64,000 nt of DNA from Minisyncoccota bacterium. GTDB lineage: Bacteria; Patescibacteriota; Minisyncoccia; Phycocordibacterales; UBA9973. Each line of letters begins with the position of its first letter. The stretch's first letter is position 1. The stretch is taken from contig CALNZI010000009.1 in the NCBI GenBank assembly GCA_942491275.1, forward strand, positions 21,938 through 85,937. Direction: 5' to 3'. The position numbers and the translations under genes are program-made. Below the pieces are notes generated by a model, which saw only the letters and a list, made by a program, of their open reading frames with translations, did not search any database and was not told where the DNA came from. Positions 3,383 through 59,502 of this stretch are shown one piece after another.

Positions 3383-3476
3383 TAAAGAAACATAAAATTT
3401 GTATTCTCTTATCCCTGCCCTGACTGCAAGTCAGGGCGCGCGCCTACACCTACTCATAAAATTTTTGTTTCTTTAT
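3383..3476 (-). repeat. Copy A of a three-copy ~95-nt element (A/T-rich closing stem plus a GC-rich conserved core)
   Basis: The minus strand reads ataaagaaacaaaaatttt-ATGAGTAGGTGTAGGCGCGC-[GCCCTGACT tgc AGTCAGGGC]-AGGGATAAGAGAATACA-aaattttatgtttctttag. It aligns with 13619-13711 and 56917-57011. Confidence 0.65.
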
Positions 3477-3486
3477 GCGGGTTAAA

Positions 3487-3518
3487 AATAAAAACCCCTC
3501 AATTTTGAGGGGTTTTTA
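3487..3518 (-). terminator. Intrinsic terminator of the dksA-like gene
   Basis: CCCCTC/GAGGGG stem flanked by an A-run and a T-run. Confidence 0.8.
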
Positions 3519-3525
3519 AAGTAAA

Positions 3526-7112: not shown

Positions 7113-8147
7113 TTACTTACTTAATTGTTCCTTGAAGTAATTTACCCAGGGAATTTTGACGGGATTTTTTTTGTGAACAAAGGATAAACTGAAGGCAAAA
7201 TACATTCCTCTAATCATGGAAATTAAAACTTGGGAAAAAGGAGTTTCTCCCGCAACTTCTACGCCATAATGTTTAATTTTTTGCTTATCAAGAATCATTT
7301 TAGTCACCTCATATCTTTTTTGTATTTTGTCTGAGTATAAATTTGATTCAAGGAAAATAAATTGGAGAGATTTTGGATTCTTTTTTGGGAACTCCAGTCC
7401 TTCCATCAGGTGGTGATTTAATTCTGGAATTTCATGAGACAGGGCTAATGTTTTACTTGTTTCATGAATTTGATTACGAGTGAATCTTCCCACATTGGCT
7501 AAATGATTAGAACTTACGACAACGAGAGTTTTATTTTTTGACAGCTTAGCTCTTTTGTAAACTCCACTAAGTATTTTTTCAGACTCTTTATTCTTCCAAT
7601 CCATTAATTCAGTGATTCCATTTTCTATTTCTTCTTTACTGAGAGTGCATATATTATGAGTTATACAAATTTTAAGAATAGTCATCATTATGGAACCAGT
7701 TCCAAATCTTGGCTGGCCACAGGGATTATCTTTCGTATCGATAATACAGACAGGCAGGTTTTTTTCATTCAACATTTCTGCCAATTCTCCGCCGGTTGTA
7801 ATTCCAACAACATTGGCTCCAGAGTTTAGAGCATCTTTTGTTCCAGATATTGTTTCCTCTGTTCCACCTGAATAACTAGTAGCTAGAACTAAGGTTTCTT
7901 CATTTACCCATACAGGTATGTGGTAGTCATTACTGATGGTGATTGGCACAGTTAGAACATTTAATGATTTTATTATGTATGCTCCAAGGGTTGACCCTCC
8001 CATTCCAATTACTAATACATTTTTAATTGGTTTATTGTTGGTTTGGTATTTTGTATTTTCCCAGGAGTTAAAGCATTGTTTCGGAAACAAATTTATTGAT
8101 CCAAAAACATTTTCTGTATCATATTTTTTTATTTTATTTTGATTCAT
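7113..8147 (-). CDS. SIS-domain bifunctional phosphoglucose/phosphomannose isomerase-like protein
   Basis: SIS motifs (VLVIGMGGSTLG, ATSYSGGTEET), ~340 aa, divergent from glmS. Confidence 0.65.
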   Translation of the reverse strand: MNQNKIKKYDTENVFGSINLFPKQCFNSWENTKYQTNNKPIKNVLVIGMGGSTLGAYIIKSLNVLTVPITISNDYHIPVWVNEETLVLATSYSGGTEETISGTKDALNSGANVVGITTGGELAEMLNEKNLPVCIIDTKDNPCGQPRFGTGSIMMTILKICITHNICTLSKEEIENGITELMDWKNKESEKILSGVYKRAKLSKNKTLVVVSSNHLANVGRFTRNQIHETSKTLALSHEIPELNHHLMEGLEFPKKNPKSLQFIFLESNLYSDKIQKRYEVTKMILDKQKIKHYGVEVAGETPFSQVLISMIRGMYFAFSLSFVHKKNPVKIPWVNYFKEQLSK

Positions 8148-8200: not shown

Positions 8201-10036
8201 ATGTGTGGAATTATTGGATACATTGGAAAGAGAGAAGCTTTACCAATTATAATTAAAGGACTTCAGCGATTAGAGTATCGTGGCTATGATTCAGCTGGGG
8301 TGGCTCTTCTGGATGAACAAATGAATGTTTTTAAAAAAAGGGGAAAAGTTGAAGAACTTATAAAATTTACAAAAAATAATCCTCCGAAGGGAACCATCGG
8401 TATAGGTCATACTCGTTGGGCAACTCACGGAGAACCCTCAGATAGAAATGCTCACCCCCATCTTTCGGAGTCTGGGTCTCTTGCCATTATCCATAATGGA
8501 ATTATTGAAAATTATATTGTGTTAAAAAAAGCCCTAGAAAAAGAAGAACAAAAATTTATTAGTGAAACAGACACAGAGGTGCTTGCTCATCTTATTGAAA
8601 CCATAAAAGAAAAAGATAATTTAACAACAGAAGAAGCTGTGAGAGGGGCCCTCTCAAGAGTGATTGGAGCCTACGCCATAGTGGTTCTTGATGAGAAAGA
8701 CCCAGATACTTTAATAGTAGCACGGAAAGGAAGCCCTCTTGTTGTTGGGATTGGGAAACAAGAATTTTTTATTGCATCAGATGCTTCCCCTATTATTGAA
8801 TATACAAAAAGTGTTATTTATCTTGAAGAGGGGCAAATGGCGGTAATTAAACGTACTGGTGAATTCTTATTAAAAACTATTGATGGGGCGACGGCGACTC
8901 CTTTTATAGAAGAACTTACAATCGAAGCAGAGGCACTTGAAAAAGAAGGTTACGATCATTACATGCAAAAAGAAATTTTTGGGCAGACTCAAACTATTAA
9001 AGATGCTCTCCGAGGTCATATTCTTTCCGACAATAGCGTTCATCTTCGTGGGATGGAAGAAATGATGGAAGGTTTCACAAAAGCAAAAAGAATAATTATT
9101 ACAGCTTGTGGAACTTCTTGGATTTCTGGTCTTGTCGGTGAATATTTGATAGAACAATTGGCTCGTATTCCAGTGGAAGTGGAATATGCATCAGAATTTA
9201 GATATCGAAATCCAATTTTAAACAAAGATGATATAGTTATTGCAATTTCTCAATCAGGAGAGACGGCAGATACTTTGGCTGCAATAAATTTAGCTAAAAA
9301 ATCAGGAGCACTTATCTATGGAATCTCTAATGTTGTTGGATCGTCCATTTCTCGGCTATCAGATTCTGGCTCCTATATACATGTTGGTCCAGAGATTGGA
9401 GTTGCTTCCACTAAAGCCTTTACAGGACAAGTGGCGATACTATCTCTTATGGCTCTTCTTTTAGCAAAAAGAGAGGGAACGCTTTCTGAAGATAGATATA
9501 AAGAGCTGGTGGATTCTTTGGATTCAATAGCTAGTCATGTAGGGAAAATATTAAAAGAAGAAAGTAAAATTATAAAAATTGCAGAAATTTTAAAAAATAA
9601 AAATAATGCCTTATTTCTTGGAAGAGGAATTTTATTCCCCGTTGCTTTAGAGGGAGCTTTAAAATTGAAAGAAATTTCATATATTCATGCTGAGGGATAT
9701 CCGGCTGCTGAAATGAAGCACGGGCCCATTGCATTGGTTGAAAAAGATTTTCCAGTTATTGTGGTTGCCACTAACAATGAAATGATTGAGAAAGTGATTT
9801 CTAATGTTCAAGAAGTTAAAGCCAGAGGAGCTTTGACCATTGGAATTATTCGTGAAGGAAATGAAGAGATTAAGAAAAATTTTGATTATACAGTTGAGAT
9901 TCCAAATGTACCAGATGAATGGATGCCAATTCTTTCAGTTATACCTTTGCAATTATTGGCATATCATACAGCCGTTATCCGTGAGTTGGATGTTGATAAG
10001 CCTCGGAACTTAGCTAAGAGTGTAACGGTAGAGTAA
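8201..10036 (+). CDS. glmS: Glutamine--fructose-6-phosphate aminotransferase
   Basis: N-terminal MCGIIGY nucleophile, two SIS domains, C-terminal KSVTVE. Confidence 0.97.
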   Translation: MCGIIGYIGKREALPIIIKGLQRLEYRGYDSAGVALLDEQMNVFKKRGKVEELIKFTKNNPPKGTIGIGHTRWATHGEPSDRNAHPHLSESGSLAIIHNGIIENYIVLKKALEKEEQKFISETDTEVLAHLIETIKEKDNLTTEEAVRGALSRVIGAYAIVVLDEKDPDTLIVARKGSPLVVGIGKQEFFIASDASPIIEYTKSVIYLEEGQMAVIKRTGEFLLKTIDGATATPFIEELTIEAEALEKEGYDHYMQKEIFGQTQTIKDALRGHILSDNSVHLRGMEEMMEGFTKAKRIIITACGTSWISGLVGEYLIEQLARIPVEVEYASEFRYRNPILNKDDIVIAISQSGETADTLAAINLAKKSGALIYGISNVVGSSISRLSDSGSYIHVGPEIGVASTKAFTGQVAILSLMALLLAKREGTLSEDRYKELVDSLDSIASHVGKILKEESKIIKIAEILKNKNNALFLGRGILFPVALEGALKLKEISYIHAEGYPAAEMKHGPIALVEKDFPVIVVATNNEMIEKVISNVQEVKARGALTIGIIREGNEEIKKNFDYTVEIPNVPDEWMPILSVIPLQLLAYHTAVIRELDVDKPRNLAKSVTVE

Positions 10037-12563: not shown

Positions 12564-12635
12564 AAAAATCCCTTAATTTAAATTAAGGGATTTTTATTTT
12601 GCGACATTAGAGCCAGGAGGTGATATAATATATAG

Positions 12636-13618: not shown

Positions 13619-13711
13619 ATAAAAATACAAAAATTTTCTGAGTAGGTGTGGGCGCGCACTCTGACCTTAGCTGGAGTAGGGATAAGTGAAGATAAATTTT
13701 TATATTTTTAT
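13619..13711 (+). repeat. Copy B of the three-copy ~95-nt element
   Basis: ataaaaatacaaaaatttt-CTGAGTAGGTGTGGGCGCGC-[ACTCTG accttagc TGGAGT]-AGGGATAAGTGAAGATA-aaatttttatatttttat. Confidence 0.65.
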
Positions 13712-37056: not shown

Positions 37057-37091
37057 AAAAATGTCCTCGACTTACAAGTCGGGGACATTTG
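37057..37091 (+). terminator. Intrinsic terminator of surface gene 5
   Basis: ATGTCCTCGACTT ac AAGTCGGGGACAT followed by TTT. Confidence 0.75.
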
Positions 37092-37096
37092 ATTTG

Positions 37097-37163
37097 ACCC
37101 CCACCTATATTTTTATTGCAGGTATCCCCGCGTTGAAAACTATAAAAATATAGGTGTGGGGGT
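37097..37163 (+). other. 20-bp-stem hairpin abutting the tuf promoter -35 box
   Basis: ACCCCCAC-CTATATTTTTAT ...24-nt loop... ATAAAAATATAG-gt-GTGGGGGT. The 3' arm runs into TTGACT. Confidence 0.6.
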
Positions 37164-37190
37164 TGACTTTATTTTGCCATTTGCTAGTAT
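37163..37190 (+). promoter_or_regulatory. tuf/S10-operon promoter TTGACT-N16-TGcTAGTAT
   Basis: About 35 nt are shared nearly verbatim with 42313-42349 (gggggtTGACTTTtATTTT..aTTTGCTAGTATA). Confidence 0.7.
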
Positions 37191-51828: not shown

Positions 51829-52515
51829 ATGCAGGATAGAAAACATATTATAGTATCCCTTGGAGGATCTCTTATAGTACCAGATGCTATTGATACTGAT
51901 TTTTTGAAAAACTTTGTTTCTTTAATTAAAGAATATGTTGAAAAAGGATTTTATTTTGTAATTATTACAGGAGGAGGAAAAACATGTCGAAGGTACAATG
52001 ATTCCCTTGAACAAATAATAAAGCCAACTAACGAAGATTTAGATTGGTTAGGAATTACCACCACTCGTTTGAATGCTGAATTAGTTAGGATTTGTTTTGG
52101 GGACTTAGCTTATGAAAAAATATCCCTTGATCCAGATTTAATACCCAAAACAGACAGACCGGTTATTGTTGGAGGAGGATGGAGGGTAGGTAATAGTAGC
52201 GATTTGGCAGCTATTCATTCAGCTGTTCAAGTTGGAGCTAAAAAAGTAATTAACCTTTCAAATATTGATTATCTTTATGATAAAGACCCAAAGGTCTATC
52301 CCGATGCAAAGATAGTGGAGAAGAGCTCCTGGCTTCAATTTAGGGCAATTTTACCGGATAGTTGGGTTCCAGGGAGTAATTCTCCTTTTGATCCTGTGGC
52401 TGCAGAAAAAGCAGAAAAGGAAGACCTAGAAGTTGCCATCATGAATGGAAAAAACATAGAAAATCTTAAAAATTATTTAGACGGAAAAGATTTTATTGGA
52501 TCAGTAATTAAATAG
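51829..52515 (+). CDS. pyrH: Archaeal-type uridylate kinase-like amino-acid-kinase family protein
   Basis: HIIVSLGGSLIVP...VIITGGGKTCRRY...VIVGGGWRVGNSSD. ~228 aa as in archaeal PyrH. Confidence 0.65.
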   Translation: MQDRKHIIVSLGGSLIVPDAIDTDFLKNFVSLIKEYVEKGFYFVIITGGGKTCRRYNDSLEQIIKPTNEDLDWLGITTTRLNAELVRICFGDLAYEKISLDPDLIPKTDRPVIVGGGWRVGNSSDLAAIHSAVQVGAKKVINLSNIDYLYDKDPKVYPDAKIVEKSSWLQFRAILPDSWVPGSNSPFDPVAAEKAEKEDLEVAIMNGKNIENLKNYLDGKDFIGSVIK

Positions 52516-52582
52516 AAACTTTAAAAGCAAACAAATTCCTGAAAATTCGGGAATTTGTTTGTTTTTTTGGTATAATTTGTAA

Positions 52583-56916: not shown

Positions 56917-57011
56917 AAAAGAAACAAAAAATTTTATGAGTAGGTGTGGACGCGCCGAAGCGAGCTTGCGAGCGGAGAGGGACAAGCGAAGACAAATTTT
57001 TTCGTTTCTTT
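56917..57011 (+). repeat. Copy C of the three-copy ~95-nt element
   Basis: aaaagaaacaaaaaatttt-ATGAGTAGGTGTGGACGCGC-[variable GC hairpin CGAAGCGAGCTTGCGAGCGGAG]-AGGGACAAGCGAAGACA-aaattttttcgtttcttta. Confidence 0.65.
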
Positions 57012-59343: not shown

Positions 59344-59356
59344 GTTATAACTTAGT

Positions 59357-59475
59357 AAAAGAGAAATTAAATAGCTTTCTTTAAAATGCACACATAATTT
59401 TCTGCTGAAAATTTGCTCTACTCGGCTCGCCAGCCTCCGTAAGGCATTTTTCAGAAACTATTTAATTTCTCTTTT
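59357..59475 (+). repeat. Perfect 18-bp inverted repeat enclosing an 83-nt core with a GC-rich centre
   Basis: AAAAGAGAAATTAAATAG (59357-59374) and CTATTTAATTTCTCTTTT (59458-59475). The core contains CTCGGCTCGCCAGCCTCCGTAAGGC. Confidence 0.6.
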
Positions 59476-59502
59476 GGCATTTATAGGTTATAATAGAAAT
59501 AT

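Follow-up and report, generated by a model that had tools for sequence, protein, structure and literature searches.

Repeated hairpins of several described classes come close to the element analyzed here. REP/BIME sequences and REPINs are multi-copy, non-coding intergenic hairpins that often lie just 3' of genes, in both orientations, may be transcribed as RNA hairpins and stay in place at orthologous sites. Bacterial MITEs and elements of the ERIC, Correia and RUP types are about 100–150 nt long and are characterized by a long terminal stem, an intergenic position beside housekeeping genes, presence or absence between relatives and possible side-effects as terminators; the termini of MITEs are conserved and come with target-site duplications. 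Bidirectional intrinsic terminators, which lie no more than about 10 nt from stop codons, have a GC-containing stem between an A-tract and a T-tract. Invertible segments flanked by inverted repeats and the T-shaped flip/flop hairpins of parvovirus ITRs combine an asymmetric two-hairpin centre with a long stem, and the centre occurs in both orientations between arms that stay the same. The GTAG-REPs are palindromes of 20–40 bp that have the same sequence in all copies and carry an unpaired GTAG tag; they prefer unidirectional and convergent intergenic regions and are associated with a gene for a RAYT (Y1 transposase), which is typically flanked by REPs (Di Nocera et al. 2013, PMC3733652).

Many of these traits recur in the family that we designate F1, three copies of which lie in a 64,000-nt stretch of a contig from a Minisyncoccota bacterium (hereinafter, the window), and each class also differs from it. 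Like REPs, F1 carries the tetranucleotide GTAG, directly followed by a small hairpin; however, it is 105–125 nt long, with locus-specific arms and an asymmetric, non-palindromic three-way-junction core, and within its GUAG (G3–G6) the residues G3 and U4 pair with C10' and G9' in the closing stem, P1, and covary. Nor is F1 depleted between divergent genes (p = 0.34); no RAYT was seen among the ten most recurrent clusters of neighbouring genes in the ~1 Mb around copies, and F1 does not resemble E. coli REPs in sequence. In contrast to MITEs, F1 has variable termini and an invariant centre, with only the inner arm (TATAT-AAAATTT) semi-conserved, and neither a duplication nor a parent IS was found near copies. 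Unlike bidirectional terminators, it has a stem of 25–30 bp around a conserved insert of roughly 65 nt, and copies also occur between divergent genes and adjacent to separate terminators. The likeness to parvovirus ITRs and invertible segments is an analogy only, F1 being chromosomal and internal and about 65 bp being very short for enzymatic inversion. We favor, with about as much confidence as doubt, the view that F1 is a REP/MITE-like repeated non-coding hairpin cassette of ~105–125 nt, folded as a single strand and exchanged between copies. Among the options that the earlier note on this DNA had set side by side (a structured sRNA, a protein-binding or insulator site, or a MITE/REP-like element), the repeat element is the one that gains, although no target-site duplication or nearby transposase was seen and the ends, unlike those of a classical MITE, are peculiar to each locus.

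The three window copies, A at 13619–13711 (+), B at 56917–57011 (+) and C at 3383–3476 (−), share one architecture, and their positions and strands as first reported were confirmed. Each of the core motifs TGAGTAGGTGTRGRCGCGC and AGGGAYAAGNGAAKAYAAATTTT has exactly three matches in the window, where shuffling predicts 0.00 and 0.04, and a covariance model built from relatives scores the copies at 78.7 (A), 85.5 (B) and 83.4 (C) bits; the next-best match in the window, a plain A/T hairpin, reaches 25 bits, with a similar score on both strands. The model was constructed from 58 copies, and typical copies score 95–120 bits; the lineage of the window, together with L019 (L numbers denote loci from other genomes and contigs), diverges slightly, as a sub-type whose 3' arm has an additional bulge. 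In each window copy the arms are paired in the fold over ~19–21 bp, a single pyrimidine bulging from the 3' arm, somewhat more than the ~17 bp first estimated. The differences in the arms between the window copies are paired changes, as had been noticed, with the copy labels interchanged: gaaac/gtttc belongs to B and C and aatac to A.

Copy A begins 9 nt after the stop codon of a xerC/D-like gene and ends 30 nt before the start of xth. The 5' strand of P1 (13619–13643, +) comprises an A/T-rich arm (13619–13639) and a non-canonical extension, GAGU (13640–13643), and is followed by J1/2 (AG, 13644–13645), which is the same in 106/106 non-redundant copies, by the proposed P2 mini-hairpin GUGU-GGGC-GCGC (13646–13657), to which RNAalifold assigns two U·G pairs and a 4-nt loop, and by P3 (13658–13677), the variable apical hairpin ACUCUGAC-CUUA-GCUGGAGU, delineated from the fold and the P3 variants of the family. 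J3/1 (AGGGAUAA, 13678–13685), invariant across the family, leads to the 3' strand of P1 (13686–13711), in which GUGA (13686–13689) pairs with GAGU and the T-rich arm (13690–13711) contains the bulged pyrimidine. Copy B, located 55 nt past the stop codon of map and 87 nt ahead of an ORF of 421 aa, has the core GAGUAGG from 56938, P2 at 56944–56955, P3 at 56956–56977, J3/1 (AGGGACAA) at 56978–56985 and the 3' strand of P1 at 56986–57011, all on the plus strand; it is the sole copy seen with a substitution in the AGGGAUAA strand. In copy C, on the minus strand, G1 is at 3455, P2 at 3449–3438, P3 at 3437–3417, J3/1 at 3416–3409 and the 3' strand of P1 at 3408–3383; this copy lies between the comM-like gene and a separate canonical terminator (about 3495–3520) that follows a dksA-like gene.

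Relatives of these copies are numerous within a narrow range of genomes. A single pattern scan of the GTDB representative genomes, GAGTAGGTGTNGNCGC-N(8–38)-AGGGANAAG, yielded 54 loci, all but two of which (chance matches) come from Nomurabacteria or Paceibacterota MAGs, some of them mislabelled Saccharibacteria, with at least 12 pattern matches in one MAG and at least 11 in another. A metagenome scan added 103 stretches from freshwater, groundwater and peat assemblies, and overall ~170 copies were examined, 106 of them non-redundant. F1 is often present in more than 10 copies per genome; CPR genomes are tiny and gene-dense, yet in this clade the element reaches roughly 20–50 copies per megabase. 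It is absent from the E. coli genomes and plasmids searched, and no similarity to E. coli REPs, rRNA or plasmids was found. It is also absent from IMG/VR, where four pattern matches are due to chance and receive no covariance-model score, so that a phage origin was rejected. At the gathering threshold, a search of the window and 14 loci against Rfam 15 detected only tRNA, 16S rRNA and RNase P; in the window, four tRNAs were the only hits, with nothing at the element, which agrees with the initial impression that this is not a known riboswitch or ribozyme. In E-value mode, copy A and the best-scoring copy gave only sub-threshold snoRNA and plant-miRNA hairpin noise. Literature searches on CPR repeats or ncRNAs, and on the core sequence itself, found nothing specific, and the xth and map proteins of the window have no exact match on record. 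As far as seen, F1 is a previously undescribed, clade-specific family, so far restricted to one clade of Paceibacteria, and for this element, which is missing from Rfam, a covariance model is now available along with a well-supported secondary structure.

Across the family, P1 has a median length of 26.5 bp and reads, from the outside in, as an A-run, 7–10 locus-specific GC-containing pairs, the semi-conserved TATAT-AAAATTT inner arm and two freely covarying pairs, after which come, innermost, G·A, A·G, G-C and U·G. In an alignment of 62 copies, 95.6% of the cells in P1 are paired, compared with 65.5% in shuffles and 36–61% in slid controls, and 547 cells show double changes versus 156 in shuffles, the observed values being reached by 0 of 500 shuffles; 25 of the 26 pairs have changes on both sides. 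The covariation that had been proposed for the stem from the three window copies is therefore supported on the scale of the family. The letters GAG...CGA, by contrast, which had been assigned to the core, are P1 pairs (G·A, A·G, G-C, U·G) and are Watson–Crick in other copies: in rare cases, the innermost four positions are swapped for UCCC/GGGA, UCG/CGA, GGC/GCC or GAGC/GUGA. For copy A, the extension rests on the fold, on the covariation in the family and on Watson–Crick replacement of GAGU/GCGA in L087, L027 and L012; these replacements prove that P1 continues through GAGU/GCGA. The outermost 7–10 bp are locus-unique and hardly ever the same in two copies. Apart from one conserved G·U position, outer P1 contains G·U mismatches about as often as A·C mismatches, which lends no support to RNA-level selection there and is not a positive sign of DNA-level maintenance either.

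The long, locus-specific, A/T-rich P1 closes a three-way junction of the form UAG-[GUGU-GGGC-GCGC]-[variable G·A-rich hairpin]-AGGGAUAAG; inside P1, AG is followed by P2 (GUGU-GGGC-GCGC), then, without a linker, by P3 and then by AGGGAUAA. Neither junction strand varies among the 106 non-redundant copies, which were collected with a fuzzy search that allowed up to 5 and 4 substitutions. None of the rare variants of P2 disrupts a pair (U·G becomes C-G or U-A, and G-C becomes G·U), no double changes occur, and the window copies have their variable R positions in the P2 loop; these variants are consistent with P2 as a putative helix. P3 occurs in 81 variants of 17–36 nt, every one of which pairs end to end, and its opposed positions include 461 Watson–Crick, 45 G·U, 229 G·A and 44 other combinations, compared with 194, 70, 166 and 349 in shuffles; GNA/GNA and GA/GA loops are recurrent modules. 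The conserved wobbles and all purine–purine oppositions are confined to one strand, the G-rich one, which indicates that the folded entity is this strand, as RNA or as single-stranded DNA. The two conserved blocks, separated by a spacing that varies from 17 to 32 bp or more, become adjacent only when the G-rich strand is folded.

These features make it conceivable that F1 is a structured RNA with a function for the host, in which the junction on the G-rich strand would act as a protein-binding or catalytic module (a 3'-UTR tag, a decoy or a new ribozyme) that is encoded in many copies and freed from the long stem by RNase III. The invariant junction strands, the one-sided wobble and sheared G·A pairs, the freedom of P3 length combined with conserved segments that adjoin only in the folded form and, furthermore, the occupation of fixed sites across genera all agree with such a role, as does the stem of 25–30 bp, which is the typical length of an RNase III substrate. 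Nevertheless, we consider it unlikely, given that no promoter is present at a fixed position, that two thirds of the co-directional copies are antisense to the sole obvious source of transcription, that about half of the orthologous pairs are flipped, which would switch the function off at random, and that no Rfam family matches. The same variable spacing of 17 to 32 bp or more would be awkward for recognition of the duplex, and the spacer of ~65 nt would make extrusion of a cruciform unfavourable, as is generally the case for spacers of about this length. Both points weigh against an orientation-independent DNA site, at which a chromosomal protein such as a nucleoid, replication, uptake or Xer-type factor would bind the core, perhaps extruded as a hairpin or cruciform.

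Several more specific identities for the core were considered and rejected. A small ORF running through it (ATG-AGT-AGG...) has a start triplet that varies among ATG, CTG, ACG, TTG and GTG, and the lengths of P3 are not multiples of 3. Comparison with consensus forms of the K-turn, loop-E/sarcin–ricin motif, 11-nt receptor, box C/D motif and 5S/23S rRNA look-alikes produced none that fits all subtypes. A Shine–Dalgarno decoy is unlikely, the 16S rRNA of a host MAG ending without CCUCC. This 3' end (...GUAGCGGAAGCUGUUCGUGGAAUAAUU; L005:3141–3200, −), which lacks the canonical anti-Shine–Dalgarno sequence, agrees with the leaderless-looking promoters situated directly before start codons in the window.

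The genomic context of F1, derived from crude ORF calls around 138 non-redundant copies, follows no single rule: 48 copies lie between co-directional genes with the element antisense and 25 in the sense orientation, 19 are located between convergent genes and 15 between divergent genes. Co-directional, convergent and divergent intergenic regions number 84/22/16 with F1 and 552/101/113 without it (p = 0.34), and the 13–14% of copies found between divergent genes equal the share of such genes in intergenic regions generally. Neither a −10 nor a −35 hexamer keeps a set distance from the hairpin, whichever side or strand is considered. The neighbours within the window are dksA-like, comM, xerC/D, xth and map genes, and elsewhere alr, murB, murA, ychF, miaA, typA, infB, rbfA and trxB recur; the ten most recurrent neighbour clusters, in ~1 Mb around copies, are all housekeeping, with no transposase, RAYT or mobilising gene. 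Two associations proposed in the earlier note do not extend to the family: the link to downstream leaderless promoters does not hold, as a gene follows on the same strand in only ~37% of copies, and the DNA-transaction genes give way to housekeeping ones. Both are accidents of this window.

A distribution indifferent to orientation and intergenic type is what a DNA site of the kind outlined above would be expected to show, and REP/BIME elements do bind gyrase and IHF. The strong sequence conservation and the palindromic octamer GGCGCGCC within the core point the same way, as does the xerC/D-like gene that is flanked by one copy in the window and by two copies in L019. Xer adjacency is not general, however, and the relation to local GC skew is inconsistent; a bias relative to replication was examined and dismissed, as the 23 of 62 copies on the locally G-skewed strand mirror the weak antisense bias and reveal no clear replichore rule. 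Together with the spacing of the conserved blocks, this leaves the DNA site quite improbable.

In its placement relative to genes, the hairpin usually adjoins a stop codon. Its base is at a median distance of 8–15 nt from the nearest stop codon, and in about half of the copies the last G:C pair is framed by mirrored runs, of A before and of T after it; of 62 copies, 32 have a T-run of at least three after that pair, versus 10.5% in background, a ~5-fold excess. F1 could thus be a portable terminator or insulator cassette, that is, a bidirectional intrinsic terminator or mRNA 3'-end stabiliser selected by the host, in which the GC-rich apical junction would serve as a clamp that folds fast and nucleates the long A/T stem in a genome of roughly 33% GC, and F1, F2, F3, F4 and others (see below) would be interchangeable versions. 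A symmetric terminator would be expected to work both ways round, the compensated changes keep orthologous arms paired, and plain terminators of the window have a like design of A-tract, GC stem and T-tract. Moreover, nearly all relatives have F1 or a hairpin of another family at the site 3' of alr, directly before the −35 box of the next gene. We nonetheless regard this explanation as doubtful. The side that lies downstream in transcription does not have stronger T-runs than the opposite one, copies lie between divergent genes as often as background, a separate canonical terminator stands beside several copies (window copy C, L052), and L094, L037 and L033 lack a hairpin at the same site. A clamp would also leave the 100% conserved unpaired purines and the one-strand, G·A-only mismatches unexplained. 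A pure terminator, then, fits the frame and the position, but neither the purines that stay unpaired and invariant nor the copies that lie between divergent genes or beside separate terminators.

Many copies occupy orthologous sites in genomes whose flanking proteins are 60–95% identical, and sites are kept across genera. Window copy A corresponds to the site in L019 (xerC 83% identical) and copy B to that in L031 (map 73.5% identical), where the element is inverted. Such inversion is common, about half of 11 orthologous filled/filled pairs being flipped. What is turned round, or traded for the version of another copy, is the central ~75 nt, with the outer arms left in place. In the sister genomes L004 and L023, alr shows 86% identity and the 59 nt beyond the hairpin 100%; the central 75 nt match at 96% in inverted orientation, and the outer arms have differences at 7 of 13 positions, every one of them compensated. 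Homologous arms around a flipped core with a different P3 were also observed in L005/L152, L094/L134, L049/L130, L077/L083 and L011/L022, and paralogues in the same genome can have common arms but unlike P3 (L029/L046, L006/L022 and two L009 copies). Compensated transitions in orthologous arms number three in L023/L090, two in L016/L040 and one, plus one U·G, in L018/L042. An independent sRNA gene was rejected on these grounds, the strand being inconsistent, with about half of the orthologous pairs flipped, and no promoter occurring at a fixed position. More generally, the random or labile orientation, the lack of a promoter, the background placement and the unrelated neighbours are hard to reconcile with a cis-acting riboswitch or leader or with a dedicated sRNA gene.

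Filled and empty versions of a site exist as well. One site is filled in L049 and empty in L004, L027 and L042, another is filled in L015 and empty in L037, a third is filled in L011 and L022 and empty in L033, and the alr site is empty in L094; at 25171–25228, the window has just a plain terminator at the place where L052 has F1. The change may be gain or loss, as several of the empty sites could equally be deletions. Four filled/empty comparisons gave no evident target-site duplication, the A/T-rich flanks leaving duplications of 2–3 bp undecidable, and no pair of identical hairpins was found at unrelated loci, so that recent transposition is not demonstrated. Of the marks by which the earlier note would have recognised a MITE, many dispersed copies and filled/empty sites were found and target-site duplications were not. 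Insertion of F1 into the loop of an existing terminator was rejected, because the empty sites of the filled/empty pairs are without any hairpin, although loss of a whole hairpin is possible.

For the repeated cassette that we favor, these comparisons suggest a mechanism. The palindromic, semi-conserved inner arms (TATAT-AAAATTT-NN) would offer homology in both orientations, and the core could be inverted and made uniform by recombination or by template switching, both from arm to arm and from one copy to another; RecA-independent inversion is an established process for inverted repeats that lie close together. Exchange of this kind would explain the random orientation, the shuffled P3 types and the near-identical cores, and we infer that the core is homogenised, shuffled and inverted through the inner arms. 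The pairing of the arms and the exact junction may be maintained since the single-stranded fold, as DNA during replication or repair or as RNA when transcribed, would be recognised by a putative trans-acting factor, either a mobilising or recombining enzyme or a nucleic-acid-binding protein. For the host, a strong hairpin at the gene end would likely act, as a by-product, as a terminator or 3'-end protector, for which the sequence of the core is unnecessary. The main weakness of the repeat reading is that the junction is invariant even in orthologous copies with flanking proteins only 60–75% identical. A core that remains exact at such old sites leaves room for a host function, since purely selfish DNA would be expected to decay over this range of protein identity unless exchange between copies is very efficient.

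Tentatively, then, the invariant AG/AGGGAUAA junction and the G·A-studded hairpin might form either a new protein-binding or catalytic module of Paceibacteria or the recognition hairpin of a single-strand mobilisation system. As a module, the junction would be presented by the locus-specific stem of 25–30 bp, or the stem would serve processing by RNase III, in what could be a host-domesticated gene-end tag; a single-strand mobilisation system, for its part, would need neither conserved termini nor target duplications. Should a binding or mobilising protein be found, it would define a new system of single-strand recognition. Meanwhile, F1 offers a natural case of a core that is flipped and exchanged within a stable, locus-specific stem, and a marker for annotating intergenic DNA, probably transcript ends, in unculturable organisms.

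Several sister families compete with F1 for the same intergenic slots, and in some relatives the sites of F1 are occupied by other long-stem hairpins. F2 (L016:5267–5368, L020:2238–2339 and 2547–2681, L053:7104–7205, L001:3722–3827) has a long-stem design like that of F1 and a minimal core, UCGUGUCGGAGCCCUUUAGGGUUAAGCG, such that it resembles F1 minus P2 and AGGGA; it is present at a site where L009 carries a copy of F1. F3, a second long-stem intergenic family, is located at 59344–59488 (−) in the window, at L005:1921–2069, L033 about 2620–2760 and L019:4416–4433, and at 7 other loci. Its GC-rich core is unlike that of F1 and includes the sub-hairpin AAUUUUCAGYAGAAAAUU, an 18-mer detected in 10 of 161 fetched loci; in L019, F3 is placed between xerC and the F1 copy, and the family has no Rfam match. 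F4 (L012:4627–4802, L022:1227–1362, L047:6847–7019, L039:6353–6412) is structured, measures ~110 nt and is enclosed by AAUAGCUCUUC...GACUAUU; it has no Rfam match at the gathering threshold and was found at F1 sites of other genomes, including the site of window copy B between map and the 421-aa ORF. Two further families lie in F1 slots: one with GTAG-rich arms (GTAGTAAGTAG...CTACTTACTAC) at L048:1016–1106 and, in L155, downstream of alr, and one whose core ends with UAAGGAGG at L049:5216–5340, in tandem with F1, and, in L130, downstream of alr.

A different hairpin, upstream of tuf (37088–37170 of the window), had been connected with F1 through an inverted pair of the motif TAGGTGTGGG. The pair is present, but the kinship is not upheld. 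The arms read CCCCCAC(AC)CUAUA.../...UAUAGGUGUGGGGG, and the same 13-mer arms occur in an unrelated metagenome contig (L073:1385–1426); 10 nt are common with the F1 core, the F1 model gives only 19.6 bits, on both strands, and outside F1 the shared 9-mer occurs 5 times where about 4 are expected. The hairpin probably belongs to a separate family of the terminator type.

Ordinary terminators of the window, at 12566–12598, 25171–25228, 52514–52575, about 3495–3520 and 1684–1762, consist of a symmetric A-tract, a short GC stem and a T-tract; judging by this symmetry of sequence, they would work in both directions, and the F1 model scores such terminators weakly and equally on both strands. Near 8 kb of the window (about 8100), the GC skew and the orientation of genes switch, with divergent genes at 7113–8147 (−) and 8201–10036 (+), which could mark a replication origin or just reflect local gene-strand effects. 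A second local dip of the GC skew is located at 22–30 kb.
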